From Omnitrophica bacterium GWA2_41_15 (lineage in GTDB: Bacteria > Omnitrophota > Gorgyraeia > Ghiorseimicrobiales > Ghiorseimicrobiaceae), in the NCBI GenBank assembly GCA_919902105.1, contig CAKKQO010000017.1, positions 3,305-67,304 on the forward strand: 64,000 nt of DNA, given 5' to 3'. Each line of letters starts with the position of its first letter. Position 1 is the stretch's first letter. The notes beneath the pieces were generated by a model. It saw only the letters and a list, made by a program, of their open reading frames with translations, ran no database searches and was not told the origin of the DNA. The position numbers were made by a program, and so were the translations under genes. This document shows positions 21,256-62,376 of this stretch, in pieces.

Positions 21256-21933
21256 ATGAGAAAGACAATATTATTTTTATCCTGGTTAATTTTTTACGTA
21301 GGTTCTGCCTATGCCGTGCCGATGAAAGGGCCGTATTTTTTAAAACAAGGCCAAATTGAGGTAGGCGTTGAGGCAAATTTTGTCGCCAGGCGCGATATTG
21401 AGGATATTACTACAAACATCCAAAGCAGCCAATTTTTTTATTGCATGGCCTTTGGTTTGTTTGACTGGTTAAATATCGAGGCAAAGTATGGCTCAGGCGA
21501 TATTAAGAACGATCAATATAATGACCAGAAATTTTATTATAATTACAACTGGGGCGGCGGATACGGCTTAAGAATAAAGGCATATGAAAACCATAAAATG
21601 AAAATTATCTTAGGGGCTCATCATATTAGTATCCATCCTGACCCGAACAAAAATACGGATAATTCAACCCATCGCGTAATTTTAGACGAAACGCAGTCCG
21701 ATATAACTTTAAGCCTAAAAGGAGAAAGGTTTAGCCCATACGCAGGCGCAAAAGTCGGGCATACCCGCCTTATCCGGCGCATAAATTCTGAGCGCGCGAC
21801 ATTACGCTCGGAAGAAAATTACGGTTTTGCTTTAGGGTTTGATTATATGTTTAAGAAAAACGTGCGTTTTAATTTTGAAGGCCGCTTCGTCGATGAATAC
21901 GCTTTGACCTCGAGCGTAAGCTACATATTTTAA
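21256..21933 (+). CDS. Putative outer-membrane beta-barrel protein
   Basis: 225 aa. Signal peptide (..GSAYA), alternating amphipathic strands, C-terminal ...SVSYIF. Confidence 0.5.
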   Translation: MRKTILFLSWLIFYVGSAYAVPMKGPYFLKQGQIEVGVEANFVARRDIEDITTNIQSSQFFYCMAFGLFDWLNIEAKYGSGDIKNDQYNDQKFYYNYNWGGGYGLRIKAYENHKMKIILGAHHISIHPDPNKNTDNSTHRVILDETQSDITLSLKGERFSPYAGAKVGHTRLIRRINSERATLRSEENYGFALGFDYMFKKNVRFNFEGRFVDEYALTSSVSYIF

Positions 21934-22047
21934 ATGAAGCCACAAGTTAGGGAACGTAAGTCGACATAACTTGTCTGGCTGAATTTATCCCGCCGAATAC
22001 CATAAAATTCTCTATTGATAATTTTATGGTATCTTATGAGGCGGGAG
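21934..22047 (-). repeat. Nested-hairpin boundary element (BH family), copy G, stop-codon-abutting orientation
   Basis: TAAATGAAG + AGCCACAAGTTA...TAACTTGTCTGGCT hairpin + GAATTT + ATCCCGCC[ACCATAAAATT...AATTTTATGGT]GGCGGGA. Confidence 0.7.
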
Positions 22048-22076
22048 AGCGTTTTATGTTCCGCTAATCCTAAAAT

Positions 22077-22673: not shown

Positions 22674-23302
22674 TTACGCAAAAAACAGGAATAGAGATTA
22701 AGGCGATATTGTTTGATCTAGGTAATGTCACGGTAAATTTTAACCATTATTTAGCCGTTGAAAGGATAAAAAATTTTACGGATAAAAGCGGCGATGAAAT
22801 TTATCGGTTATTTTTTGATTCTGACCTTACCGGCTTATTTGAAGAAGGAAAACTTAAGCCTTATGAATTTTACCGTAAGGTAAAGGAACTTCTAAAAGTT
22901 AAAATTAGCTACGAAGAATTTGTGCCTATCTGGAATGAGATATTTTTTATTAGCGAAGATAACCTAAAAATGCACGCCCTGATTAAAAAATTCAGAGAAA
23001 AATTTACGGTGGTGTTAATTTCCAATATCAATAAGTTGCACTATGATTATTTGATAAAAAAATATGATATATTTGAAGAGTTTGATAAACATATACTTTC
23101 CTACGAAGTAGGTGCGCGTAAGCCGGCTACTTTAATTTATAAAGCAGCACTTAGGGATGCAGACGCAGATATTAAAGATGTGGTTTATATCGACGATAGG
23201 GAAGATTTAGTCAAGCAGGGTAACGCCTTGGGGATAAAGAGCATATGTTTTAAAAATTATCCGGCCCTTGTAGAAAGTTTAGGCGCCCTGGGGTTAATAT
23301 AA
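22670..23302 (+). CDS. HAD-superfamily hydrolase (subfamily IA-like)
   Basis: 210 aa. Motif I AILFDLGNV, motif II ISN, C-terminal YIDDRE. Confidence 0.7.
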   Translation: MITQKTGIEIKAILFDLGNVTVNFNHYLAVERIKNFTDKSGDEIYRLFFDSDLTGLFEEGKLKPYEFYRKVKELLKVKISYEEFVPIWNEIFFISEDNLKMHALIKKFREKFTVVLISNINKLHYDYLIKKYDIFEEFDKHILSYEVGARKPATLIYKAALRDADADIKDVVYIDDREDLVKQGNALGIKSICFKNYPALVESLGALGLI

Positions 23303-23304
23303 GG

Positions 23305-23440
23305 ATTTGCGGCATCGAGAAAAATCTAATCGCCAGCCGGCAGATTTTTCTTGCGTCGCAAAAGTATTTGCGACATCAAGCAAAAAATTTACGCCAGTTG
23401 GCATTTTTTGCTTGACAACAACTATATCTTGTGTTAACTT
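23305..23440 (+). promoter_or_regulatory. Promoter-carrying hairpin repeat (P family), copy P1 with duplicated unit; TTGACA-17-TAACTT
   Basis: GAAAAATCT-aatcgccagccggc-AGATTTTTC, TCGCAAA-agta-TTTGCGA, CATC, GCAAAAAAT-ttacgccagttggc-ATTTTTTGC, then TTGACA 23412-23417 and TAACTT 23435-23440. Confidence 0.55.
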
Positions 23441-24626: not shown

Positions 24627-24767
24627 CTCCGCCTCATAGGATGCCCTAAAATTTTCGTGCGATAATTTTAGGGCATTCGGCGGAGTTAATCCCGCGAGAA
24701 GCGGGATCAATTCCGGCATATAACTTATGAGCGCTTCGTTCCATAAGTTATGCCGTCATTGAGGAGG
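24627..24767 (+). repeat. Nested-hairpin boundary element (BH family), copy A, start-codon-abutting orientation
   Basis: CTCCGCC[ATGCCCTAAAATT...AATTTTAGGGCAT]GGCGGAG, ATCCCGC-gagaa-GCGGGAT, CAATTCC, GGCATATAACTTATG...CATAAGTTATGCC, GTCATTGAGGAGG, then TTG start 24773. Confidence 0.75.
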
Positions 24768-28112: not shown

Positions 28113-28823
28113 ATGGTAAAAATTGGAATATTCGGTTTAGAAAATATTTTTTCCGGCACAAAAGCCGCTGTCGCTGATAAACGCATCGATAAGCTAAAGG
28201 ATTTATTTAAATCCGCCAAAAAAGTCTATATAGAAACAGAGTTAATTTATGAACAAGCAAACCTATCTGAGGCAGACGGAATAATTATAAATAAGGATTC
28301 GAAACTGGATTTAATCTTATCCGACTTAGAGTTTGTCGAAACAAGGTTATCCCGGACAGAAGATAGAGGAGAAAAAGAATTACTCGCTAGATTTAAAATA
28401 AGCTTAGAAAAAGAAGAGTTTCTTTCTTTTGAGCCGTTAAACGATGCCGAGAAAAAGATTATTGCCCCATTCCAGTTGTTCACCATCAGGCCGATATATT
28501 TAGTAGATACAAGTAAAGAAGTGGATAAGGATGCCATTTTACTTAACGCTTATAATGAGTTTGGGTATATTTCTTTTTTTACCGTTGGCGATAAAGATTC
28601 GCATGGCTGGCCGCTAAAAAAAGGTTTGACTGCTTGGGATGCCGCAGGAGTAATCCATTCGGATATCCAGCGCGGCTTTATCCGCGCCGAAGTAGTGCAT
28701 TATGATGATTTAATTAAGGCGGGGCACTTAAACGAGGCGCGCAATAACGGGCTTTTAAAATTAGAAAATAAAGAATATGTAGTGCAAGACGGGGATTGGA
28801 TGCTCTTTAGGTTTAATAAATGA
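28113..28823 (+). CDS. YchF-like protein retaining the C-terminal DUF933/TGS-like domain but lacking a recognisable P-loop
   Basis: 236 aa. The C-terminus FFTVGDKDSHGWPLKKGLTAWDAAGVIHSDIQRGFIRAEV matches the YchF C-terminal domain. The N-terminus KIGIFGLENIFSGTKA replaces GxxGxGKST. Confidence 0.6.
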   Translation: MVKIGIFGLENIFSGTKAAVADKRIDKLKDLFKSAKKVYIETELIYEQANLSEADGIIINKDSKLDLILSDLEFVETRLSRTEDRGEKELLARFKISLEKEEFLSFEPLNDAEKKIIAPFQLFTIRPIYLVDTSKEVDKDAILLNAYNEFGYISFFTVGDKDSHGWPLKKGLTAWDAAGVIHSDIQRGFIRAEVVHYDDLIKAGHLNEARNNGLLKLENKEYVVQDGDWMLFRFNK

Positions 28824-28895
28824 CGGCACAACTTATAGAGCCGTAAGGCGATATAAGTTGTATGCCGGAATTTATCCCGACCGAAGCGTCGGGAT
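28821..28895 (-). repeat. BH family copy B1, stop-codon-abutting orientation
   Basis: AAATGAC (the TGA is the stop of the upstream gene) + GGCACAACTTATA...TATAAGTTGTATGCC + GGAATTT + ATCCCGAC-cgaagc-GTCGGGAT. Confidence 0.75.
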
Positions 28896-28952
28896 AAGTG
28901 AGGGTTCAGCCAAGAAGTATCAGTGGGATTGAACGTTGAGATTTATTAATAC

Positions 28953-29070
28953 TTGCTCCTTGCTTTAACGCTTGTAAATTTCTTCGAAATTTACTACGCA
29001 AGCTTCGGAGTCAATTCAGCCGGATAACTTATGGCATTCTGCGAATTCCATAAGTTATGGCTTCATTGAC
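28953..29070 (+). repeat. BH family copy B2: Q module + terminal hairpin, abutting the purH start
   Basis: The 65-nt Q module (28953-29017) is about 90 percent identical to 42711-42775. Then ATAACTTATGG...CCATAAGTTAT hairpin and TTCATTGAC before ATG 29071. Confidence 0.75.
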
Positions 29071-30633
29071 ATGATTAGAGTAAAACGCGCGCTTATAAGC
29101 GTATCAGATAAGCAGGGGATATTGGAATTTGCTAGAACACTCCAAAGTTTGGATGTTGAGATAATTTCAACCGGGGGGACAGCAAAGATATTATCCGACG
29201 GCGGAGTAAAAGTTATTGAGGTTTCGGATTATACTGGTTTTCCGGAAATGCTCGATGGCAGGGTTAAAACCTTGCATCCCAAGATACACGCAGGGCTTTT
29301 GGCTGTACGGGATAAGCCCGAGCATATGAAGCAATTAGCCGAACACAAGATAGGGCTGATTGATATGGTGGTAGTAAATTTATATCCTTTCGAGAAAACC
29401 ATACAAAAAAAAGGCGTGACACTTAGCACGGCAATTGAAAATATAGATATCGGCGGGCCTTCAATGTTAAGGTCTGCTGCGAAAAATTACCGTTCGGTAG
29501 CTGTGGTCTCTAATCCGGCCAGATACGAAGAGATTTTACGGGAATTAAAAAACAATAACGGCATATTATCAGATGCGGTTTTGACCCAGCTTGCTTTGGA
29601 TGTTTTTAATCTTACCTCTTATTATGACAAAGCAATTTTTAATTATTTAAAAGGCACTTTTTCTTTGGGGGAGCTTGAAAAAATCACCTTTCCAGAAACG
29701 ATAGAGCTTAGTTTTAAAAAGCTCCAGGACTTAAGATATGGCGAAAACCCGCATCAGAAGGCGGCATTTTATGCTAATAAAAATGGCGATTTAAGAGGGT
29801 TAGCGGGCGCCAAGCAATTAAGCGGCAAAGAGCTGTCTTTTAATAACATCTTAGATTTGAATTCTGCTTGGGGATTGGCTTGCGAGTTCGATAAACCTGC
29901 GGCAGTAATCGTTAAGCATAATAACCCTTGTGGCGCGGCCGAAGATGAAAATTTGCTTAAGGCATATCAGAATGCCTATAAGTGTGATCCGTTTTCTGCT
30001 TTTGGCGGGATTATCGCCTTAAACCGGCCGGTGGATAGGGCGGTAGCACAGGCATTGGAAAAGAGCGGGTTTATTGAATGTGTCCTTGCCCCGAGTTTTA
30101 GCAAAGATGTGCTTAAGATTCTAGAAAAAAAGAAAAATCTCAGGATTTTAGAGCTAAAAGATAATGAGATAAAAGAGAGCATAGACTTTAAGAAAGTGTC
30201 CGGCGGCATGCTCTTGCAGGATAAGGATTCAAAAATTTATGCCCCGGATAATTTAAAAACAGTGACAAAAAAGAAGCCTTCTAAGAAAGAAATTGAATCT
30301 TTACTTTTTGCTTTTAAAGTGGCAAAACACGTCAAATCCAATGCCATCATTTTAGCTAAGGCCACTATGACCGTTGGTGTCGGCGCAGGCCAGATGTCGC
30401 GCGTGGACAGCGCATATATTGCCATAAAAAAGGCTGGGAAGTTAGCCAAAGGTGCAGTTGCAGCAAGCGATGCCTTTTTCCCTAAAGAGGATGCCGTTAT
30501 CCAGCTGGCCAAGGCTGGGATAAAGTCAATAATTCAACCCGGCGGTTCCATCGCCGATGCGCAAATTATTAAAACTGCGTCTAAATTAGGCGTCTCTATG
30601 GTCTTCTGCGGGATGCGGCATTTTAGGCACTAA
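29071..30633 (+). CDS. purH: Bifunctional AICAR transformylase / IMP cyclohydrolase
   Basis: 520 aa. RALISVSDK, GGTA, DGRVKTLHP, NLYPF, NIDIGGPSMLR, VIVKHNNPCG and GGSI blocks. Confidence 0.9.
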   Translation: MIRVKRALISVSDKQGILEFARTLQSLDVEIISTGGTAKILSDGGVKVIEVSDYTGFPEMLDGRVKTLHPKIHAGLLAVRDKPEHMKQLAEHKIGLIDMVVVNLYPFEKTIQKKGVTLSTAIENIDIGGPSMLRSAAKNYRSVAVVSNPARYEEILRELKNNNGILSDAVLTQLALDVFNLTSYYDKAIFNYLKGTFSLGELEKITFPETIELSFKKLQDLRYGENPHQKAAFYANKNGDLRGLAGAKQLSGKELSFNNILDLNSAWGLACEFDKPAAVIVKHNNPCGAAEDENLLKAYQNAYKCDPFSAFGGIIALNRPVDRAVAQALEKSGFIECVLAPSFSKDVLKILEKKKNLRILELKDNEIKESIDFKKVSGGMLLQDKDSKIYAPDNLKTVTKKKPSKKEIESLLFAFKVAKHVKSNAIILAKATMTVGVGAGQMSRVDSAYIAIKKAGKLAKGAVAASDAFFPKEDAVIQLAKAGIKSIIQPGGSIADAQIIKTASKLGVSMVFCGMRHFRH

Positions 30634-32079
30634 ATGACCCACCCCCAAGCAATCCGCTATTTAGAATCCTTAGTAAACTACGAGAAGAAATCCTATTATC
30701 ATTATAAACACGCATTTAAATTAGAGGGCATAAAGAATTTTTTAGAAATCTTGGGCAATCCGCAGGATTCTCTACGCTGTATTCATATTGCCGGCACTAA
30801 AGGTAAGGGTTCAACCTGTGCCTTTATTGCTCATATCTTAAGAGAGGCCGGACTTTCCGTCGGACTTTATACCTCGCCGCATTTATCGGATTTCCGCGAG
30901 CGCATTAGGATTTTAACCATACCACCTACTACCTATCACCTATCACCTGAATTTGAGGGGATGATTTCAAAACAAGCGTTATCGCGCTTGGCTTGGCGCC
31001 TAAAGCCGACAATAGATAAATTTAACCACAATTCTAAATACGGCCCGCTGACATTTTTTGAAGTTTATACGGCACTCGCCTTTATTTATTTTAAAGAAAA
31101 AAAAGTGGATTTTGCGGTTTTAGAGACGGGTTTGGGCGGAAGATTAGATGCCACAAATGTGATTAATCCTTTAGTCTGCGTAATTACCCCGATAAGTTTA
31201 GAGCATACTCAACTTTTGGGCAATACATTAACGAAAATTGCCCGCGAGAAGGTGGGTATTATCAAGAAGTTTCGCCCCTCGCCCCTCGCCCCTCGCCCCT
31301 CGGTAGTAATCAGCGCGCCGCAGGAGGAAGCAGCAGCTAGGGTGATTAGGGATAGATGTAGAAAAGTTGGCGCTAGATTATATGAAGTAGGGAAGGATAT
31401 AAGATACAAAAAATCCGAAATCCGAAATCCGAAATCCGAAATAAATCTAAAATCCAAAATCAAAAAATTTAAAATCCGCGGAATTTTTAATGAATATAAT
31501 AATTTAAAAATAAAACTTTTAGGTAAGCATCAGCTGGTGAATGCCGCCACGGCAGTGGGGGCAGTTGAGGCGTTAAAAAAATACGGCATTAGTGTAAATA
31601 TCGATGCGATAAGAAAAGGGCTTTATAATACGTTTTGGCCGGGCAGATGCGAAATTGTATCTAAGAAACCGTTAATTGTTTTAGACGGTGCGCAGAATGT
31701 TGCTTCAGCTAAGGCATTAAAAGAAACGATTAAAGAAAATTTTTCCACCGAAGGCGGATCCGCCTCCGGCGGAAAGTATAAAAAGTTAATTCTGGTTTTA
31801 GGGGCTTGTTGCGATAAAGATATTAAGGGAATATGTAATGAGTTGTGCTTGATGGCAGACGAAATCATCTTAACCAAAGCCAAAAACCCGCGGGCGGCGG
31901 AGCCGGAGCATATCAGGGTTCAGGGTTCAGGGTTAAGGGTTAAGGAAAAAATACATTTAACAGAAAATGTAGAGGAAGCGATTCAAAAAGCAGAAGAGCT
32001 TACTAGCAAAGAAGATTTAATCCTGATTACGGGGTCGTTGTTTGTGGTGGCAGAGGCGAGGGAAGTGTTGCAGAAATGA
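30634..32079 (+). CDS. folC: Folylpolyglutamate synthase / dihydrofolate synthase, with several low-complexity in-frame inserts
   Basis: 481 aa. HIAGTKGKGST P-loop, LETGLGGRLDATN, GKHQLVNAATA, LDGAQNV blocks. Start abuts the purH stop. Confidence 0.85.
   Translation: MTHPQAIRYLESLVNYEKKSYYHYKHAFKLEGIKNFLEILGNPQDSLRCIHIAGTKGKGSTCAFIAHILREAGLSVGLYTSPHLSDFRERIRILTIPPTTYHLSPEFEGMISKQALSRLAWRLKPTIDKFNHNSKYGPLTFFEVYTALAFIYFKEKKVDFAVLETGLGGRLDATNVINPLVCVITPISLEHTQLLGNTLTKIAREKVGIIKKFRPSPLAPRPSVVISAPQEEAAARVIRDRCRKVGARLYEVGKDIRYKKSEIRNPKSEINLKSKIKKFKIRGIFNEYNNLKIKLLGKHQLVNAATAVGAVEALKKYGISVNIDAIRKGLYNTFWPGRCEIVSKKPLIVLDGAQNVASAKALKETIKENFSTEGGSASGGKYKKLILVLGACCDKDIKGICNELCLMADEIILTKAKNPRAAEPEHIRVQGSGLRVKEKIHLTENVEEAIQKAEELTSKEDLILITGSLFVVAEAREVLQK
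30923..30950 (+). repeat. Heptanucleotide tandem array in folC (CACCTAT-type, 4 units)
   Basis: CACCTAC TACCTAT CACCTAT CACCTGA. Translated as PTTYHLSP. Confidence 0.85.
31272..31302 (+). repeat. Heptanucleotide tandem array in folC (TCGCCCC x4)
   Basis: TCGCCCC x4 then TCGG. Translated as RPSPLAPRPS. Confidence 0.9.
31411..31480 (+). repeat. Heptanucleotide tandem array in folC (AAATCCG x4 plus degenerate AAAATCC-type units)
   Basis: AAATCCG x4, then AAATAAATCT AAAATCC AAAATCA AAAAATTT AAAATCCGCGG. Translated as KSEIRNPKSEINLKSKIKKFKIRG. Confidence 0.9.
31742..31775. repeat. 34-bp GC-rich palindrome, folC copy (31/34 identical to the mnmE copy)
   Basis: TTTCCACCGAAGGCGGATCCGCCTCCGGCGGAAA. 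Two A-C mismatches in the stem. Translated as STEGGSASGGK. Confidence 0.85.
31923..31957 (+). repeat. Heptanucleotide tandem array in folC (TCAGGGT x3, TAAGGGT, TAAGGAA)
   Basis: Direct reading. Translated as RVQGSGLRVKE. Confidence 0.9.
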
Positions 32080-33611: not shown

Positions 33612-35099
33612 ATGATTGATACAAGGTTTAATCTAACCGACACAATCGCGGCGATGGGGACGGGGCTAGGGGAAGCCGGTATCGGAATTGTGCGCATTAG
33701 TGGAAAAGATGCGCTAAAGATTGCCGATAAGATTTTTGTTGGTAAAGACGGTAACAAACCGTCGCAATTTAAAACATATACGCTGCATTATGGGTGGATT
33801 GTGAATAGTCCACAGTCCATAGTCCGTAGTCCACAGAAAAAAAAGAAGAAACTACCGACTACCGACTACCGACTACCGACTAATATTATCGATGAAGTGC
33901 TTTTGACGGTAATGCGCGCGCCCAAGAGTTATACTAAGGAAGATGTAGTGGAGATAAATTGCCATGGAGGGATTGTGGCAATGCGGGCGGTATTAGATTT
34001 GGTTTTGGCGAATGGGGCGCGCCTTGCCTCTGGCGGTGAATTTACCAAGCGTGCCTTTTTAAACGGAAGGATTGATTTAAATCAGGCAGAGGCAGTTCTG
34101 GATATAATTCGCGCCAAAACAGATAGTGCGCTTAAAATAGGGACAGAGCAGTTAAGAGGGATATTGTCTTTGCAAATAAATAAACTGCATAAGGATTTGT
34201 TAGGCGTACTTACGATATTAGAAGCAAATATTGATTTTCCCGATGAAGAAATTGGCGCGGTTAATTTAAAAGAGGTTAATAAAAAGCTCAAGACCACAAA
34301 GAATAAACTAAAAGATATTGTAGATTTGGCAAAGCGCGGGCAAGTGCTGCGCGATGGTATTGGCGCGGTTATCTGCGGCAGGCCCAATGTGGGCAAATCC
34401 TCGCTTTTGAATGCGCTCTTAAGAAGGGAGCGCTCTATCGTTAGCCCGGTTGCCGGCACTACCCGTGACACAATAGAGGAAATTATCGATATAAAAGGCA
34501 TTCCAATTAGGATTGTAGATACTGCAGGAATTATTGAGCCGCGGGATTTAGTGGAAAAAAAGGCGGTTTCGCGCTCTAAGCGCGTTATTGATCTGGCGGA
34601 TTTGGTGATTTTGCTTTTTGACGGCAGCCAAAAATTAAACAAAGAAGATAGTGCGCTGATTAAAAAATTTCCTCCGAAGGCGGATCCGCCTTCGGAGGAA
34701 AGCAAAAAGCAAGTTATCGCGGTTATAAATAAAATAGACCTAAGGCAAAAAATAAAAAAAGAGAAACTAAATAAAGTATTTGAATGTGTAATTGAGCTTT
34801 CAGCGAAGAAAATAAAGAATATAAATTTATTAGAAGATGCGATTGCGGGTTTGGTGTTTGGCGGAAAAATCAATAAATCCGAGTCTCTACTGGTGAGTAA
34901 TTTAAGGCATATTGAGTTGCTTAGGGGAGCGCAAAAAACTCTTGGCCAGGCCTGCGATTCGCTGGATAATAAAGTGTCTCTTGAATTCATTGCCCAGGAT
35001 ATTAAGGCGGCCTTAGGTTATTTTGATGATATTTTAGGTAAGAAATTTTCCGAAGACCTATTGGATAAGATATTTGGGGAGTTTTGTATCGGTAAATGA
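33612..35099 (+). CDS. mnmE: tRNA modification GTPase MnmE with in-frame repeat inserts
   Basis: 495 aa. DTIAA..T, SYTKEDVVEINCHGG, GRPNVGKSSLLNAL, VAGTTRD, DTAG, C-terminal FCIGK. Confidence 0.85.
   Translation: MIDTRFNLTDTIAAMGTGLGEAGIGIVRISGKDALKIADKIFVGKDGNKPSQFKTYTLHYGWIVNSPQSIVRSPQKKKKKLPTTDYRLPTNIIDEVLLTVMRAPKSYTKEDVVEINCHGGIVAMRAVLDLVLANGARLASGGEFTKRAFLNGRIDLNQAEAVLDIIRAKTDSALKIGTEQLRGILSLQINKLHKDLLGVLTILEANIDFPDEEIGAVNLKEVNKKLKTTKNKLKDIVDLAKRGQVLRDGIGAVICGRPNVGKSSLLNALLRRERSIVSPVAGTTRDTIEEIIDIKGIPIRIVDTAGIIEPRDLVEKKAVSRSKRVIDLADLVILLFDGSQKLNKEDSALIKKFPPKADPPSEESKKQVIAVINKIDLRQKIKKEKLNKVFECVIELSAKKIKNINLLEDAIAGLVFGGKINKSESLLVSNLRHIELLRGAQKTLGQACDSLDNKVSLEFIAQDIKAALGYFDDILGKKFSEDLLDKIFGEFCIGK
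33806..33880 (+). repeat. Two heptanucleotide arrays joined by an A-run inside mnmE (TAGTCCA-type x4, ACTACCG x4)
   Basis: TAGTCCA CAGTCCA TAGTCCG TAGTCCA (33806-33833), A-rich linker, ACTACCG x4 (33851-33878). Translated as SPQSIVRSPQKKKKKLPTTDYRLPTN. Confidence 0.9.
34668..34701. repeat. Perfect 34-bp GC-rich palindrome inside mnmE
   Basis: TTTCCTCCGAAGGCGGATCCGCCTTCGGAGGAAA. Translated as FPPKADPPSEE. Confidence 0.9.
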
Positions 35100-35204
35100 A
35101 GACATAACTTATGGAGCGATAGCGAACATAAGTTATCTGTCTGAATTTATCCCGAAGCGTGTGCAGGAAATTTCAAAGAAATTTCCAAACGCTTACGCAA
35201 GGGA
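35095..35204 (-). repeat. BH family copy F, stop-codon-abutting orientation
   Basis: AAATGAA (the TGA is the mnmE stop) + GACATAACTTATG...CATAAGTTATCTGTC + TGAATTT + ATCCCGAAGCGT[GGAAATTTC-aaa-GAAATTTCC]ACGCTT..GGGA. Confidence 0.7.
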
Positions 35205-36023: not shown

Positions 36024-36368
36024 ATGGAGCATTCTAAAATACAATTAGCCGACAAACAAGCCGACGGCTATTGTATTAACTTACGCCCTTCCTCTAAAGG
36101 TATAAGGAAGGCGTATCCTACTGGATTAGGCGCGGTTAATTTAGTCTTTATGGTTACGAATAAGGGAATGTTAGGGTGCGGCGCCTTTAATGTAGCGGTG
36201 CTGGATAAATTTAACTACCCTACCGCTGTTGTGCGTTCAACTTCCGGCTCGCCTATTGCAACCATTGACGAACTTCTCTCTGGCGTAGTCAAAGAGGCAA
36301 ATGCCTCTGCCATCAAACTTGGCGTAAAAGCCGGTATGCCGGCTAAAAATGCCTTGGAAAAATTATAA
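36024..36368 (+). CDS. DUF1805 (YunC-like) family protein
   Basis: 114 aa. NLVFMVTNKGMLGCGAF pattern resembles DUF1805. Tentative. Confidence 0.5.
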   Translation: MEHSKIQLADKQADGYCINLRPSSKGIRKAYPTGLGAVNLVFMVTNKGMLGCGAFNVAVLDKFNYPTAVVRSTSGSPIATIDELLSGVVKEANASAIKLGVKAGMPAKNALEKL

Positions 36369-40497: not shown

Positions 40498-41130
40498 ATG
40501 GCGGAAATTGGGAGGGCGAGCAAAATGAAAGGGAAGACGGAAATATTTGTTTTAATCATAATCTTCCTCTGCGGCTTGGCAGGCTTTTCTTTATATAAGT
40601 ACGCAGGGATAAATATAGATTTAGGCCGCGAGAAGAAGCAGTTGATAGAGTTAGAAGCAAGAAATAATGCAATAACTCAAGAATTAGGAGAACAGAAAGT
40701 GCGCCTTAGCCAAGTAAACGAGGAGAAGAAAAACCTTGAAGAAGAAGTAACTCTCGGCAGGCAAAATTTAGGCCAGCTGAAGCTAGAATTAGCGGATAGC
40801 CGCAAGTCACTGGCAAGTTTACAAAGGACGGTCGAAGAATTAACTGCCGTTAATCAGAATTTAAATCAGGAACAGGCTGCTCTAAAGGCAAAAATCGAAG
40901 AATTAACCAGCCGAAAAAATACTTTAGAGGCGAAGATAAGTTCTGTAGAAGAACTTAAACAGATGTTGAAAGATTTAATAAAGTCAAAAAGAACCCAGCG
41001 CCACAGGAAGGCGAGAGCAAAGATAAACACAGAACAAGAATCAAAAGATAAAAACCATGGTTATATCATTTATCAGGGAAAACCTACCTTTAAGCCTAAG
41101 ATTTCTATACAGGTAAGACCCGTCCTTTAA
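40498..41130 (+). CDS. Membrane-anchored coiled-coil protein
   Basis: 210 aa. One TM helix, then a long heptad-rich segment (LEEEV..LKLELADSRKSLASLQ..). The start could be ATG 40525. Confidence 0.4.
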   Translation: MAEIGRASKMKGKTEIFVLIIIFLCGLAGFSLYKYAGINIDLGREKKQLIELEARNNAITQELGEQKVRLSQVNEEKKNLEEEVTLGRQNLGQLKLELADSRKSLASLQRTVEELTAVNQNLNQEQAALKAKIEELTSRKNTLEAKISSVEELKQMLKDLIKSKRTQRHRKARAKINTEQESKDKNHGYIIYQGKPTFKPKISIQVRPVL

Positions 41131-41216
41131 AGGTATCAGGACGGTCTACCCTTGTAGGGTAAGACCCGTCCTTTAAAGGTATCAGGACGGTCTACCCTTG
41201 TAGGGTAATACCCGCC
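41112..41216 (+). repeat. 46-nt tandem duplication (2.3 copies) spanning the gene end; each unit forms a hairpin
   Basis: GGTAAGACCCGTCCTTTAAAGGTATCAGGACGGTCTACCCTTGTAG at 41112 and 41158, with a partial third copy. Contains AGACC(C)GTCCT/AGGACGGTCT and TACCC/GGGTA stems and a GTAG motif. Confidence 0.85.
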
Positions 41217-41684: not shown

Positions 41685-41694
41685 TGTTTACTTT

Positions 41695-41815
41695 ATCCCG
41701 TTTCGTAAGATGCGTCAAAATTCTATTCTACAATTTTGACGCACTCAACGGGATCAATTCCGACATATAATTTACGTAAACTTTGTTTACGTAAATTATG
41801 TCGTCATTTAGGAGC
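41695..41815 (+). repeat. BH family copy D, start-codon-abutting orientation
   Basis: ATCCCGTT[GCGTCAAAATT...AATTTTGACGC]AACGGGAT, CAATTCC, GACATATAATTTACGTAAA...TTTACGTAAATTATGTC, GTCATTTAGGAGC, then ATG 41820. Confidence 0.75.
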
Positions 41816-41819
41816 AGAT

Positions 41820-42641
41820 ATGAATAAAAAATTAATTTTCATTATTTCCATCTCTATACTTATTACGGCAGGCCTTTATATACTTATAAAGAATGTTTCG
41901 TTTAAATCTAATAAATCAGCGCCTAATGCAGCATCCGCCCGTCAACTTTTTGAGTTAGCCAAGGGCCAAGAATTAAATAATGAATTGCTTCTTGCAAAAG
42001 CCACGTATCGAGAAATTATTAATAATTATCCTGATTATCGAGAAATACAAGATGTCGAGAAAAAAATAGAAGATTTGAATACAAGGATTATTTTTTTACC
42101 TACGCTTATTGCGCCTACAAGCATATTCTACTTCGTCGCACCCGGAGATAGCCTAAACAAGATTGCCAGAGAATTTAATACTACCGTCGAATTAATCTCG
42201 AAAATAAATATGCTTAAGTCTGGGATAATCCGGCCGGGAATAAAGCTTAAGATTTGGACGGGTAAGTTTAGCGTATTGGTGGATAAATCTCAGAATATAC
42301 TAATGCTTAAGTCTGATAATGAGATAATCAAGGTCTATACGGTTTCAACGGGTATAAATAACTCTACCCCGGTCGGGGCTTTTAAGATTAAGGATAGAAT
42401 TGTTAACCCTCCTTGGTTTAAGCCGGGGGCGCCTAAGCCTATTCCGGCAGGGAACCCGGAAAATATTTTGGGCACGCGCTGGCTGGGTTTTGATTTACCT
42501 AGTTATGGAATACACGGGACTATTGATCCCAAAACGCTGGGTCAGCAGGTTACTAATGGCTGCGTCAGGATGAAGAACGAAGATGTGGAGGAGCTATTCT
42601 CTTTGTTGCCGCCAGATACGGAAGTAACGATTATCGATTAA
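41820..42641 (+). CDS. LysM domain + YkuD-type L,D-transpeptidase
   Basis: ATG 41820 (MNKKLIF, TM/signal). LysM YFVAPGDSLNKIAREF. YkuD catalytic HGT...GCVRM. Confidence 0.8.
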   Translation: MNKKLIFIISISILITAGLYILIKNVSFKSNKSAPNAASARQLFELAKGQELNNELLLAKATYREIINNYPDYREIQDVEKKIEDLNTRIIFLPTLIAPTSIFYFVAPGDSLNKIAREFNTTVELISKINMLKSGIIRPGIKLKIWTGKFSVLVDKSQNILMLKSDNEIIKVYTVSTGINNSTPVGAFKIKDRIVNPPWFKPGAPKPIPAGNPENILGTRWLGFDLPSYGIHGTIDPKTLGQQVTNGCVRMKNEDVEELFSLLPPDTEVTIID

Positions 42642-42710: not shown

Positions 42711-42826
42711 TGCTCCTTGCTTGAGCGCTAGTAAATTTCTTACGAAATTTACTACGCAAGCTGCGGAGTCAATTCGCGCAAAATAATTTACATCAGCTTC
42801 GCTTCTGTAAATTATGCGCTCATTGA
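42711..42826 (+). repeat. BH family copy C: Q module + terminal hairpin, abutting the accA start
   Basis: Q module 42711-42775, GCGCAAAATAATTTACA...TGTAAATTATGCGC hairpin, then TCATTGA directly fused to ATG 42827. Confidence 0.75.
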
Positions 42827-46147: not shown

Positions 46148-46269
46148 CCTCCTCAATGACGACACGACTTATGGAAATCGTAGATTGATATAAGTCGTAT
46201 GTCGGAATTGATACCGAAAGCTGCGATAAAAATTTGGAACAAATTTTTGAAGCGTTTTACTTTCGGTAT
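46148..46269 (-). repeat. BH family copy E (minus orientation), abutting the rpmA start
   Basis: On the - strand: ATACCGAAAG[...AAAAATTT..AAATTTTT...]CTTTCGGTAT, CAATTCC, GACATACGACTTAT...ATAAGTCGTGTC, GTCATTGAGGAGG, 8 nt, ATG. Confidence 0.75.
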
Positions 46270-59632: not shown

Positions 59633-59633
59633 A

Positions 59634-59729
59634 TTTTTCTTGCGCCACAAAAGTCTTTGCGGCATCGCGCAAAAAATTTACGCCAGAAGGCATTTTTTGC
59701 TTGACAAACAAAATCGGATTGATTAAAAT
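59634..59729 (+). promoter_or_regulatory. P-family hairpin repeat copy P2 with TTGACA-17-TAAAAT; leaderless start
   Basis: CTTGCG, CCACAAA-agtc-TTTGCGG, CATC, GCGCAAAAAAT-ttacgccagaaggc-ATTTTTTGC, TTGACA 59701-59706, TAAAAT 59724-59729, ATG 59737. Confidence 0.6.
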
Positions 59730-61273: not shown

Positions 61274-61301
61274 TTGACTTTTTTTATTTTTGTGGTATAA
61301 T
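61274..61301 (+). promoter_or_regulatory. Promoter TTGACT-16-TATAAT with extended -10 TG
   Basis: TTGACT 61274-61279, TGG-TATAAT 61293-61301. Confidence 0.55.
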
Positions 61302-61341
61302 TAAAATGTAAGCGCGAAGCAGCGCTTAAAAGACAAGGCAG

Positions 61342-61369
61342 TCCGCAAAAGATAATTTTGCGGATTTTT
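61342..61369 (+). terminator. Intrinsic terminator-like hairpin
   Basis: TCCGCAAAA-gataa-TTTTGCGGA + TTTTT. Confidence 0.7.
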
Positions 61370-61370
61370 A

Positions 61371-61451
61371 TTGAGGCCACAACTTATGGAGCGAATGCGC
61401 TCATAAGTTGTATGGCCGAAATAATCCCGCGGATAGTTTACGAAGCGGGAT
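61371..61451 (-). repeat. BH family copy H
   Basis: TTATTGAG + GGCCACAACTTATG...CATAAGTTGTATGGCC + GAAATAA + TCCCGC-ggatagtttacgaa-GCGGGA. Confidence 0.7.
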
Positions 61452-61469
61452 AGAAGAATGAAGGGAGTA

Positions 61470-61506
61470 AAGGCGCTCCGGTAAAACGGAGCGCCTTTTT
61501 ATTTTT
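61470..61506 (+). terminator. Strong intrinsic terminator
   Basis: AAGGCGCTCCG-gtaaaa-CGGAGCGCCTT + TTTATTTTT. Confidence 0.85.
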
Positions 61507-61556
61507 AATGAGTGCATAACTTAGAGAGCTCGATAGAGCGATATAAGTTATATACA
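61507..61556 (-). repeat. Solo BH-type terminal hairpin (copy I)
   Basis: TAATGAG + GTGCATAACTTA-gagagctcgatagagcgata-TAAGTTATATACAC. Confidence 0.55.
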
Positions 61557-61627
61557 CGAATTAACTTCGAAGTTTACCGTGAAAATATCGTAAGAAATTT
61601 TCATGGTGTTTAAACGAGGAGTAGATC

Positions 61628-62152
61628 ATGGAATTTAGTGAATTTATCAGCCAATTTAAATCCGGGATTAGGGCTATAGCCAATAAGCATATGCCGCAAT
61701 GCGGGTTTCTTGACGCAGACGACCTTGTGCAGGAGGCACTGCTTTCCATCTGGCTTAAATGGAAGAAAGACGGCCTTAAAGACAAGAATAAAAGCTATGT
61801 CCTTAAAGGCTGTTACTTTGAAATGAAGAATTTCCTGCGCAAGTCTCTGGATAGGGTTACGCCGGTAAGTTTAGATATGCCAATAGATGAAGAAGGCGCA
61901 ACTTTAGAAGAAGTTATTCCGGATGCACGTTTCTATAGCAATAGTCGGGATATGGAGGCAAATCATTTGATAGATACGATTAGGAATGACGGTTTAACTC
62001 TGCGTGAAAAAGATGTATTTGAATACTTTCTACAAGGTTTGAATACCCGCCAGATAGGGAAAAAATTAGGCATTTCACATGTGCGGGTGGTAAAGATAGA
62101 GAAGAGCATCTGGACTAAGACGCGCGCTAAAATAGGACAGAATGATCGATAA
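61628..62152 (+). CDS. Sigma-70 family (ECF-like) RNA polymerase sigma factor
   Basis: 174 aa. Region 2 DADDLVQEALLSIWLKW. Region 4 HTH LTLREKDVFEYFLQGLNTRQIGKKLGISHVRV. Confidence 0.7.
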   Translation: MEFSEFISQFKSGIRAIANKHMPQCGFLDADDLVQEALLSIWLKWKKDGLKDKNKSYVLKGCYFEMKNFLRKSLDRVTPVSLDMPIDEEGATLEEVIPDARFYSNSRDMEANHLIDTIRNDGLTLREKDVFEYFLQGLNTRQIGKKLGISHVRVVKIEKSIWTKTRAKIGQNDR

Positions 62153-62274: not shown

Positions 62275-62376
62275 CCTTGCGTCGTAAAAGTTTTTACGAC
62301 ATCAGCAAAATCTAATCGCAAGTTTGTAGATTTTGTTTGACAGAACAAGTCTAATAAAGTATATTAGTGTATACTT
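62275..62376 (+). promoter_or_regulatory. P-family hairpin repeat copy P3 with TTGACA-17-TATATT and an overlapping 7-6-7 inverted repeat (candidate ArsR operator)
   Basis: CTTGCG, TCGTAAA-agtt-TTTACGA, CATC, CAAAATCT-aatcgcaagtttgt-AGATTTTG, TTGACA 62337-62342, TATATT 62360-62365, AAGTATA-ttagtg-TATACTT 62357-62376. Confidence 0.55.

Follow-up and report, generated by a model that had tools for sequence, protein, structure and literature searches.

Repeats of the REP/BIME/REPIN type often lie within a few nucleotides of stop codons, stabilise the upstream mRNA and affect translation. The Correia elements of Neisseria (CREE/NEMIS) and the ERIC elements of Enterobacteria are MITE-like, with RNA hairpins that are processed and alter mRNA stability, and the ends of mycobacterial MIRU repeats reportedly overlap the stop and start codons of flanking operon genes. 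Structured elements placed exactly between cistrons and defining RNA ends are represented by the intercistronic RNase III sites of the phage T7 type and by mitochondrial tRNA punctuation. No Omnitrophota have been cultured; these bacteria are often ultra-small, and their genomes are very compact. Tagged super-families of REP elements have been described (PMC3733652).

Analysis of a 64-kb Omnitrophota window (the whole stretch of DNA considered here) with a covariance model detected exactly 10 copies of a conserved hairpin of roughly 60 bases, termed HP1, six on the plus strand and four on the minus strand (57-79 bits); up to about 2% of the window is made up of one hairpin family despite the compactness of these genomes. 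We put the probability at about 50% that HP1 is the core of a REP/REPIN-like duplicative intergenic hairpin family specific to Candidatus Omnitrophota, the resident copies of which serve as gene-boundary hairpins. HP1 has apparently not been reported in earlier work, and no description of Omnitrophota repeats was found in the literature searched.

Like REP and REPIN elements, HP1 is a short imperfect palindrome that is intergenic, present in many copies and organised as singlets, inverted doublets and arrays; the stems of both have conserved mismatches or bulges suggesting recognition of a single-stranded hairpin, and both show long inheritance. HP1 differs from REPs in several ways. At about 60 nt it has roughly double their length, it contains two tandem G.A loops, it is joined to a second hairpin whose loop is conserved in its own right, it is preserved throughout an entire phylum, and it is found mostly at gene starts, flush with the Shine-Dalgarno (SD) sequence or ATG, whereas REPs avoid promoter-proximal positions. 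Two further features speak against a REP-like reading. The REP-type tetranucleotide tag (GTAG or CGTC) is missing, the ends reading TNAATGA and GAATTNA instead, and there is no target-site duplication, the flanking T-N-A of doublets matching in only 8 of 23. The REP/REPIN systems of Enterobacteria and Pseudomonas have a cognate RAYT (Y1-HUH, PF01797), while no ORF with a HUH...Y motif of a RAYT or similar transposase was detected in the window and 117 HP1 loci (about 0.9 Mb, >100 genomes); between inverted HP1 copies no relevant ORF was present, the sole case being a probable rpoA.

Correia and ERIC elements resemble HP1 in being 100-200 nt long with inverted ends, in being co-transcribed with their neighbours, in strain-variable insertion, and in that their ends can create or adjoin gene signals. 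In them, however, the terminal inverted repeats are simple and a TA target is duplicated; HP1 has no duplication, each "repeat" is itself a covarying hairpin, and most copies are one-ended singlets. A MITE of the terminal-inverted-repeat type is also not indicated by the singlets, in which an inverted heptamer occurs in only 17 of 127, mostly as decayed partners, and a direct AATGA repeat after the second hairpin, suggested by copies 3, 5 and 9, occurs in only 2 of 55. The MIRU repeats share with HP1 the position between operon genes and the overlap with flanking stops and starts, but they are direct tandem units of 46-53 bp with small ORFs, in one orientation and without a conserved hairpin; HP1 is a hairpin that occurs in either orientation, and its unit is not spanned by any ORF. 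The ATG within the heptamer opens only 3-codon or other short ORFs (ATG AAG ACA TAA in copy 5). The T7-type sites and tRNA punctuation offer an analogy for the punctuation reading considered below; they differ from HP1, which is placed in both orientations and has the stop codon inside it.

Regarding structure, T-N-AATGA is the 5' strand of a basal stem plus a tandem G.A loop of HP1. The unit consists of one long imperfect hairpin (HP1 itself, ~58-66 nt) and then a second, variable hairpin (P2) dissimilar to it. From the base upwards, HP1 comprises P0, a 5-bp stem of TNAAT paired with ATTN'A, beyond which pairing ends sharply; the tandem G.A loop; P1a, of 4 bp and free sequence; a 2-nt bulge carrying a conserved T; P1b of ~10 bp; a second G.A loop; and a variable tip. 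The pairing of TNAATGA as the base of a hairpin had been missed by the earlier note. In the main helix 96.5% of cells are paired and both-side changes occur in 10 of 19 pairs, with a covariation score of 0.421 vs 0.141 for shuffles and ~0.05 for slid partners, and 125 of 146 copies have a Watson-Crick pair at the N:N' position of P0. The two arms covary base for base, one C/G swap included, and are spaced 13-24 nt apart. Only 12 G:T and 18 A:C were counted among ~2,900 stem pairs, so wobble is not favoured, as expected for pairing at the DNA level or on two strands. The element is strand-asymmetric: the F strand, defined as that reading the heptamer as TNAATGA, scores 57-79 bits with covariance model R1, the opposite strand at the same sites 11-23 bits. 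HP1 is followed by GAATTNA-WCCC in place of the T-tract of an intrinsic (Rho-independent) terminator, and a K-turn reading is at odds with its loops, both of which are symmetric 2x2 G.A without a 3-nt bulge; K-turn-like asymmetry was confined to P2, in the loop of a single sub-family (22 of 117 copies). About a third of the copies (73 of 200) belong to inverted doublets of HP1, a central hairpin and a reversed HP1.

The family extends well beyond the window, with >200 further copies in >100 Omnitrophota genomes and very strong covariation; across 692 kb from other genomes the model scored 178 hits. The 21.5 kb examined of the 1.27-Mb contig Ga0209310_1000003 contain no copy. An IUPAC pattern for the repeat has 8 matches in the window vs 0 expected from shuffles. 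The public-genome scan yielded no fewer than 117 matches, and Omnitrophota MAGs account for nearly all of them; the few matching contigs filed under other phyla are probably mis-binned, and no copy was found in the viral contigs searched. HP1 keeps its sequence throughout the phylum, for which the covariance model is a clean marker. At the gathering threshold, Rfam detected only two tRNAs in the window and no family for HP1, and in E-value mode it returned only chance matches over 28700-29200.

The stop codons of a YchF-like gene, mnmE and an OMP gene had been proposed to lie within the element, and all of these coordinates check out. Copy 3 (plus strand; HP1 28817-28874, 75.4 bits with R1, RNA fold -28.7 kcal/mol, z = -7.3) has P0 TAAAT/ATTTA, a G.A/G.A loop, P1a CGGC/GCCG, the 2-nt bulge AT, P1b, a second GA/GA loop and an apical GCC-GTAA-GGC; its distal hairpin P2 (28875-28895), read from the sequence and folded, is TCCCGAC-CGAAGC-GTCGGGA, then T. 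The YchF-like ORF (28113-28823) ends AAT AAA TGA, and bases 28818-28823 of copy 3 double as its last Lys codon and TGA (28821-28823). Similarly, mnmE (33612-35099) ends GGT AAA TGA (TGA 35097-35099), and its last Lys codon and stop are hairpin bases 2-7 of copy 5 (35093-35199, plus strand; HP1 35093-35149, complex P2, 78.8 bits). The OMP gene (21256-21933) ends TTT TAA (21931-21933), then ATGAAGCCAC, its stop being hairpin bases 1-3 of copy 1 (21931-22048, plus strand; HP1 21931-21988, P2 to about 22048, 73.5 bits). All three window copies behind a co-directional gene have the stop within hairpin bases 1-7 (3/3). The same applies to 38 of the 42 copies that follow a co-directional ORF among 210 copies in the window and 117 Omnitrophota loci, with TAA at bases 1-3 in 24, TAA at 2-4 in 6 and TGA at or close to 5-7 in the others, whereas on the distal side of single units a gene stop is ≤2 nt away in only 4 of 47 (Fisher p = 4.5e-16); the contact of element and gene ends that had been noted is far beyond chance. 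The public-genome scan required AATGA, and pentamer conservation in the fetched loci is therefore partly ascertained; the window copies, found without this requirement, have AATGA in 9/10 and ATTGA in 1/10.

Since the heptamer T-N-A-A-T-G-A carries TAA and/or TGA, the hairpin can overlap the last codon and the stop and leave the protein unchanged. The YchF-like and MnmE proteins retain the native ends of their relatives (a final K, then the stop), and the YchF-GTPase_C profile is matched up to its last position; comparison of C-termini with relatives showed neither the truncation nor the extension that the earlier note had considered. Its alternative, that the element is recruited as the gene end, finds some support in genes bearing HP1 ending T-AAA-TGA and relatives without it ending AAG-TAA or AAA-TAA. 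In a hybrid stop codon test the right flank starts AA, AG or GA in 3 of 5 (five cases only).

Regarding gene starts, the HP1 base is followed at 0 nt by the host SD in 61 of 75 cases, and in the remaining classes it adjoins a start codon without an SD, the end of a tRNA or the T-tract of a terminator. The base TCATTGA of copy 2 (24629-24762, minus strand; two distal hairpins and HP1 24702-24762, 72.4 bits) adjoins the SD GGAGGA of a radical-SAM gene (TTG start 24773), and TCATTTA of copy 6 (41690-41810, minus strand; HP1 41749-41810, 70.0 bits) adjoins GGAGC upstream of an L,D-transpeptidase ATG at 41820. Copy 8 (46153-46262, plus strand; HP1 46153-46216, 66.0 bits) adjoins the SD (CCTCC on the plus strand) of a minus-strand L27 gene (45852-46139, Pfam Ribosomal_L27). 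SD-less contacts are seen at copy 4 (28958-29069, minus strand; P2 28958-29005, HP1 29006-29069, 65.5 bits), whose base TCATTGA stops 1 nt short of the purH ATG (29071), and at copy 7 (42733-42826, minus strand; HP1 42764-42826, 65.2 bits), where TCATTGA is followed at once by the accA ATG (42827). The proposal that the terminus reads as an RBS in reverse orientation is unsupported on two counts: about a quarter of the start-adjacent copies are without any SD, and at the Ddl/radical-SAM junction of copy 2 the empty site of locus L199 has exactly the same string, GGAGGATAAATTGGCC, with SD and start alike, so that GGAGG is host sequence adjoining the hairpin. Copies 9 (61368-61455, plus strand; HP1 61368-61429, heptamer TTATTGA, 71.3 bits; TTATTGAGG at 61368) and 10 (61505-61620, plus strand; HP1 61505-61569, 57.4 bits; TTAATGAGT at 61505) have no gene end on their left, as had been noted, and each lies directly 3' of a terminator-like hairpin and T-tract (61340-61366 and 61469-61498). 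Mature tRNA ends are flush with the base in L006, L109 (three times) and L030; about 20% of HP1 copies come after stop codons or tRNAs. A juxtaposition survey of the window and the 117 loci showed a strong preference for exact contact with stops and starts. General genome compaction is probably not the sole cause of the flush ends, as singlets are not flush on their distal side, where the median distance is 41 nt to an opposite-strand stop and 22 nt to a start, but the tail of copy 1 is also missing from the empty site, which makes this asymmetry a weaker argument than it appears at first sight.

The presence of HP1 is polymorphic among relatives with 74-91% identical PurH (91, 83, 80 and about 75% for those from the protein search, in which the protein of the window itself had no exact entry; the best metagenome relative by PurH is only 65% identical), and filled and empty orthologous junctions occur both among distant species and among close relatives. 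Over the part syntenic with L199, the window has five copies vs one in L199. Copy 4 is absent from L198 (PurH 91% identical), where the site reads TTGGAGATTTAATCA and then ATG with an intact SD-ATG, the empty site of copy 1 in L199 and L200 reads TTTTAGCCATG, and the junction orthologous to that of copy 7 is empty in L104, with a 5-nt spacer. At the purH-folC junction a doublet lies exactly between TAA and ATG in L204, and the window has no spacer there. The position of copy 4, the intact SD-ATG in L198 and the L204 doublet provide some evidence for insertion at gene boundaries, as had been suggested. Three different configurations were seen at the ychF-purH junction. In L204 a duplicate of the ychF 3' end flanks the element, a sign of spread by recombination. 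Near-identical copies occur at unlinked loci within a single MAG, and tandem arrays are present in L014 and L061. The SD is lost where HP1 adjoins ATG in secY (L014 vs L033), in the gene of L116 (vs L091) and in purH (window vs L198).

Between genomes, copies at the same junction have changed far less than the synonymous sites beside them. Copy 3 and its counterpart in L198 are identical at 79 of 81 positions, P2 being fully identical, vs 82.7% identity at synonymous third positions of the flanking genes (p = 3e-5). For copy 5 and L201, HP1 is identical at 59 of 63 positions, with one compensatory change of A:T to G:C, and the P2 fold is preserved through many double changes, vs 44% at the adjacent mnmE synonymous sites; at this copy, repeated insertion of consensus-like copies at one site may be an alternative to constraint. 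Such conservation is more in line with a host function than with an element that is purely selfish.

Among the other explanations, a rather unlikely one holds that HP1 is a host-encoded "gene punctuation" hairpin read by a conserved Omnitrophota protein or RNase, which sets transcript cut sites and ribosome stop and start, including SD-less starts 0-4 nt from the hairpin, with copying a by-product of duplication or recombination. The same-junction conservation and compensatory evolution of P2, the phylum-wide sequence, the base flush with SDs, starts, stops and mature tRNA ends, the loss of SDs at ATG contacts and the duplicated ychF end at the L204 element all argue for it, as does an enrichment of copies 5' of ribosomal-protein and other highly expressed genes: rpmE (three times), rplT, rplR, secY, rpsH, rpsP, rplQ, rpmI, rpsB, rpsT, rplJ, tuf, dnaK, eno, acpP, frr and tig, all judged from N-termini. 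That downstream genes are often of this kind also counts for the favoured reading. Against it, both orientations are found inside single-strand gene arrays with the G.A loops on one strand only, G:U is nearly absent, which is unusual for selected RNA, cleavage at the 5' hairpin base would take away the stop codon lying within, and close relatives thrive without HP1 at corresponding junctions. The G.A loops are strand-specific and yet antisense to the local genes in 122 of 193 copies, so that a simple RNA role for them is unlikely, a point that also weighs against the favoured reading. The stricter version, in which HP1 is no selfish repeat but a punctuation device of the host, its G.A-loop hairpin recognised by a conserved Omnitrophota protein and its base the defined end of each expression unit, we consider doubtful; it is compatible with purifying selection on resident copies and with the SD loss. 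If true, it would bring together embedded stops, SD-less or leaderless-like initiation at a hairpin base and the definition of tRNA ends, as a bacterial counterpart to the tRNA punctuation of mitochondria.

The covariation of TNAAT with the internal ATTN'A and the conserved bulged T would also suit the left end of a non-autonomous element of the IS200/IS605 type (PATE), with TNAAT as host target, ATTN'A as internal guide and insertion just 3'. AT-rich pentanucleotide targets are typical of that family; the targets of IS608 and ISDra2 are TTAC and TTGAT. Native gene ends such as AATAAATAA do look like the heptamer, but the empty site of copy 4 in L198 reads CAT and then TGATTAAAT on the strand of the element. 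TCAAT is missing where the insertion lies; the pentamer therefore arrived with copy 4, and a fixed host target is rejected for it. HP1 and P2 are unlike each other while IS608-type ends carry similar hairpins, the doublets are inverted and not direct, a strand bias of the expected sign is absent and no Y1 transposase was found in the 117 loci and the window, all of which makes such an origin improbable. A palindromic operator bound by a dimeric transcription factor on double-stranded DNA, or part of a promoter, would account for the many copies just upstream of genes and for TTGACA inside some central hairpins. This reading is contradicted by the variable arm spacing (13 to 24 nt) and by the base-for-base covariation, C/G swap included, which is unlike half-sites of a single factor, and sits poorly with the copies after stops or tRNAs; TTGACA is one arm of the central palindrome without a consistently spaced -10 box, and we regard the idea as very improbable. 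Least credible of all are mere coincidence between AT-rich gene ends and the repeat, in keeping with TAA being the commonest stop, and integron attC sites behind cassettes, which are structured, often overlap cassette stops and would match the AAC...GTT in HP1. The stop-overlap statistics contradict the former; the latter is contradicted by an unmatched R''/R' consensus (RYYYAAC/GTTRRRY), by elements in both directions and by flanking housekeeping genes in conserved operons.

Under the favoured REP/REPIN-like reading, HP1 would spread as DNA within and between related genomes, possibly by a trans-acting enzyme that recognises the hairpin in single-stranded form, much as REPs are recognised by RAYT or Y1/HUH enzymes, and would land, or survive, nowhere but precisely at gene edges, since intergenic spacer is almost absent from these genomes; in reverse orientation its base meets the host SD or the start codon itself. 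Resident copies may then be retained as boundary hairpins in transcripts, protecting the upstream message at its 3' end or the downstream one at its 5' end and insulating translation, an RNA-level function suggested by analogy with REP elements. Such a family would extend long-term host-associated hairpin elements to a distant phylum and add phylum-wide conservation, flush placement and tolerated insertion between SD and ATG as unusual features. A functional boundary element would show how a streamlined genome marks gene ends and how translation starts beside a stable hairpin without an SD. In the annotation of Omnitrophota MAGs, gene callers and annotators should expect stops, starts and tRNA ends adjoining HP1. 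The distal part of the unit also meets translation signals in the window: the folE SD sits after P2 of copy 5, and the 3' strand of P2 in copy 10 (GAGGAG) acts as the SD of a sigma-factor gene at 61628.

HP1 is a strand-asymmetric, strongly covarying hairpin family that is copied within genomes and varies in presence among relatives. Repeat finding and alignment revealed ten copies in the window. One repeat unit occupies 28817-28895 (copy #3), at the end of the forward-strand YchF-like ORF (28113-28823), which closes with AAT AAA TGA and aligns to Pfam YchF-GTPase_C through the last profile position. From T28817, the sequence TAAATGA-CGGC-ACAACTTATA-GA-GCCGTAAGGC-GA-TATAAGTTGT-AT-GCCG-GA-ATTTA folds into a single long hairpin, after which comes a small second one (TCCCGAC-CGAAGC-GTCGGGA). 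The other sites listed in the earlier note, namely the mnmE TGA (35097-35099), the OMP gene TAA (21931-21933) and the copies at 61368 and 61505, were also correct. The YchF-like product has 236 residues, with the C-terminal YchF-GTPase_C (residues 153-235) as its sole Pfam match and no GTPase domain detected by Pfam in the window protein; this short form lies upstream of purH in every relative examined.

Regarding the extent of the family, a degenerate pattern gave eight matches in the window and none in shuffled sequences, and matched at least 117 stretches in GTDB (one genome per species), nearly all from Candidatus Omnitrophota MAGs or SAGs; the few matching contigs filed under other phyla are short and probably mis-binned. 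Canonical copies occur on contigs filed as Neomarinimicrobiota, Nitrospirota and a Methanobacteriota archaeon (L062, L103 and L113), which are probably Omnitrophota contigs in the wrong bins, and HP1 could therefore act as a contamination marker. Rfam has no family matching HP1, the pattern is absent from viral contigs, and literature searches gave nothing on Omnitrophota repeats.

The heptamer TNAATGA belongs to the hairpin, TNAAT being paired with ATTN'A of the conserved GAATTN'A opposite. Among 146 copies, N:N' is T:A in 54, A:T in 43 and C:G in 28, and heptamer position 1 covaries too (T:A 112, C:G 11), while pairing outside this basal stem amounts to 39% at position 0 and 8-17% beyond. 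The G-A after TNAAT faces another G-A in a tandem G.A loop, followed by stem P1a (three free base pairs and a C:G pair), a 2-nt bulge of the 3' arm with a conserved T, stem P1b (A:T plus YAAYTTA and its partner), a second GA/GA(A) loop and a variable tip, often with a GNRA-like closing loop. In a 75-sequence alignment, 96.5% of main-helix cells are paired, 10 of 19 pairs show change on both sides, and the covariation score is 0.421, against 0.141 for shuffles and 0.04-0.09 for slid partners. The covariance model R1 recovered exactly the ten window copies at 57-79 bits, whereas the reverse strand of the same sites scored 11-23 bits, and the element thus has a defined strand. If the strand with TNAATGA as its heptamer is termed F and the opposite orientation R, F is the more stable on folding (F/other strand, -28.7/-22.6, -20.3/-14.7 and -25.4/-23.0 kcal/mol). 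Just 12 G:T and 18 A:C occur among approximately 2,900 stem pairs; wobble pairs are favoured on neither strand, a pattern that a selected RNA would not usually show and that accords with base pairing important in DNA or on both strands.

The hairpin base lies exactly at gene edges, where it overlaps stops with the proteins unchanged, and resident copies are constrained. Neighbours were classified for 206 usable copies from the window and 117 loci. The SD of a gene reading away from the hairpin adjoins 75 copies, its core starting 0 nt from the hairpin in 61 and at most 2 nt away in 70; a start codon without an SD lies directly at the hairpin (-1 to +9 nt) in about 26, and a co-directional ORF precedes 42, with the stop inside hairpin bases 1-7 in 38. 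The preference for exact juxtaposition with stops and starts implied by the earlier note was thereby confirmed. On the distal side of singlets, an opposite-strand stop lies within 2 nt in only 4 of 47 (median gap 41 nt; Fisher p = 4.5e-16 for stops at the base versus the distal side). The variable base N tracks the neighbour, being A beside stops (TAAATGA 15, TAAGTGA 10) and T or C beside SDs (TTAATGA 33, TCAATGA 27), with N' maintaining the pair. Mature tRNA ends adjoin five copies (four 3' ends, one in L006 and three in L109, and one 5' end, in L030), and a terminator T-tract precedes at least six, as it does window copies #9 (61368) and #10 (61505). At L109 5951-6610, the Thr, Tyr and Gly tRNA genes are each followed by HP1 at 0 to -1 nt, so that the hairpin element makes up the spacers in this tRNA cluster.

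As judged from N-termini, genes downstream of the hairpin base are often of highly expressed kinds, including rpmE (three times), rplT, rplR, secY, rpsH, rpsP, rplQ, rpmI, rpsB, rpsT, rplJ, tuf, dnaK, eno, acpP, frr and tig, and in the window L27, accA and purH. For genes such as purH, accA and secY (L014), an SD-less ATG lies 0-1 nt from a hairpin of -15 to -23 kcal/mol on the mRNA strand. Relative to local genes, the F strand runs antisense in 122 copies and in the sense direction in 71.

Inverted doublets, in which HP1 and a reversed HP1 enclose a central palindrome, account for 73 of 200 copies, about a third, and the window pair 28817-29069 is one, but with a long spacer. The central palindromes are of few types common to several species, e.g., CCCTTGACAT... 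and CCCAGCACTAATTTT..., and tandem arrays occur in L014 and L061. Other copies are singlets with a variable second hairpin, P2; under a strict test, 22 of 117 belong to a P2 sub-family with a conserved asymmetric loop (stem-GA-RK...YUUAYGA-stem) around an AAAUU/AAUUU helix. The distal tail of copy #1 (21931) is also insert-derived, and distal ends given for units are therefore provisional.

A PurH protein search identified relatives at 91% (L198), 80% (L199/L200, which share a MAG with L016) and about 75% (L201, L203 and L204), syntenic with the window over 21-36 kb. At the junction of the OMP gene and the next gene, copy #1 (143 nt) is present in the window, L199 having TTTTAG-CC-ATG, and at the Ddl/radical-SAM junction copy #2 (24702-24762, reverse strand) stands where L199 reads ...TAATAACAGA|GGAGGATAAATTGGCC. 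The SD-start string is identical in both, so the SD belongs to the host and A|GGAGGA marks the precise end of the element; the suggestion that the element terminus supplies the RBS was thus not upheld. Between ychF and purH, L198 has copy #3, lacks #4 and retains TTGGAGATTTAATCA|ATG, while window copy #4 (29006-29069, reverse strand) lies between a decayed copy of the L198-type SD and the purH ATG, 1 nt from the latter. At this junction L199 carries a different reversed singlet flush with its SD, L201 has lost the HP1 core, which leaves just TAAATGAGGA fused to P2, L204 carries a reversed singlet next to a second, 36-nt copy of the ychF 3' end, and L118, L122, L124, L127 and L128 have no element. 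In L204 (2786-3001; PurH 74% identical), the duplicate on the far side of HP1 reads GAC GGT GAT TGG ATG TTG TTT CGG TTT AAT AAG TAA and differs from the functional ychF end only synonymously, which suggests that recombination brought in the element along with a foreign 3' end of ychF. No spacer separates purH and folC in the window (CAC TAA ATG ACC), and L204 has a doublet exactly between TAA and ATG. Among distant species, the L15-secY junction holds three tandem units in L014 versus 7 nt in L033, and the element upstream of accA (42764-42826) corresponds to 5 nt in L104. In L199, 21.5 kb contain one HP1 versus five in the window. In MAG CAZDNS01, near-identical copies occur at unlinked loci beside unrelated genes. 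Together with the filled and empty junctions, these indicate that gain, loss and copying of the element proceed over the time in which species diverge.

Truncation or extension of proteins by the element, a possibility raised in the earlier note, was not observed, the window C-termini closing on Lys like those at the compared loci. For the YchF-like protein the final residues are ...FRFNK* in the window, L198, L118 and L123, ...IRTNK* in L124 and ...FRFSK* in L122, and the window and L199 share the MnmE terminus ...FCIGK*. In the DNA, these genes end T-AAA-TGA with the element and AAG-TAA or AAA-TAA without it; the final Lys codon and the stop thus fall within the hairpin base, which effectively encodes both. 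TGA accounts for 10 of 59 stops in the window, so codon usage by itself proves nothing.

Copy #3 and its L198 counterpart at the shared junction match except at 2 of 81 positions, of which one lies in the apical loop and the other in the bulge, compared with 82.7% identity at synonymous third positions in ychF and purH (binomial p = 3e-5 for copy #3). Copy #5 (35093) and its counterpart in L201, likewise at the mnmE stop, are identical at 59 of 63 HP1 positions, the differences including one compensatory A:T to G:C change in P1a, while the last 120 mnmE codons are 42% identical and synonymous sites 44% (p ~3e-18); their P2 hairpins retain the same fold despite many double substitutions and have a common flank, GGGAAAATGA. 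Either such copies are old and strongly constrained by purifying selection, or insertion of consensus-like copies recurred at one site. The former is more likely for copy #3, because its copy-specific stems are preserved.

Regarding the origin of this distribution, HP1 may have been spread by an enzyme reading the folded single strand, as its conserved bulged T, G.A loops and absence of wobble pairs resemble REP/RAYT and IS608-type substrates. With spacers of 0-10 nt, only insertions at the exact gene edge would survive, and copies would be retained since a stable hairpin against an ORF, transcribed in either sense, could guard the message end and insulate translation; reversed copies would favour the downstream, often highly expressed gene and forward copies the upstream gene. 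We give this combination of hairpin-enzyme spread, edge survival and retention as boundary hairpins a probability of about 0.5. No mobilising gene was found in the window or the 117 loci, nor any target duplication at HP1 elements. That HP1 is mainly a host-functional "punctuation" element seems rather unlikely, and other readings are minor.

Regarding other elements, the stretch 61274-61366, just upstream of copy #9, has a near-perfect sigma-70-type promoter (TTGACT, 16 nt, TG-TATAAT; 11/12 matches), followed by some 65 nt that include two hairpins, of which the second is terminator-like and bears a T-tract, and contains no ORF; it could be a small RNA gene. The GC-rich palindrome CCTCCGAAGGCGGATCCGCCTTCGGAGG lies in frame in mnmE (34662-34708) and in the FolC-like gene (31736-31782), resembling the in-frame palindromic insertions (RPEs) of Rickettsia. 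In mnmE it codes for a 10-residue insertion, FPPKADPPSE, missing from the L199 ortholog, while the window and L199 alike have the FolC-like counterpart STEGGSASGG; mnmE has a second insertion of 13 residues near residue 78. A second dispersed repeat family unrelated to HP1, with units of about 53-75 nt (AAGnnTTTGCGnCATC...TTTTTGCTTGACAA), is found at 23301-23414, 59633-59707 and 62287-62339, the first site comprising two adjacent units and the copy at 59633 being 89% identical to part of that pair. Finally, a hairpin-forming 46-nt unit, GGTAAGACCCGTCCTTTAAAGGTATCAGGACGGTCTACCCTTGTAG, is repeated in tandem as two identical copies at 41112-41203, at the end of the gene at 40498-41130, and a 67% identical copy of the unit occurs at 36079-36124.
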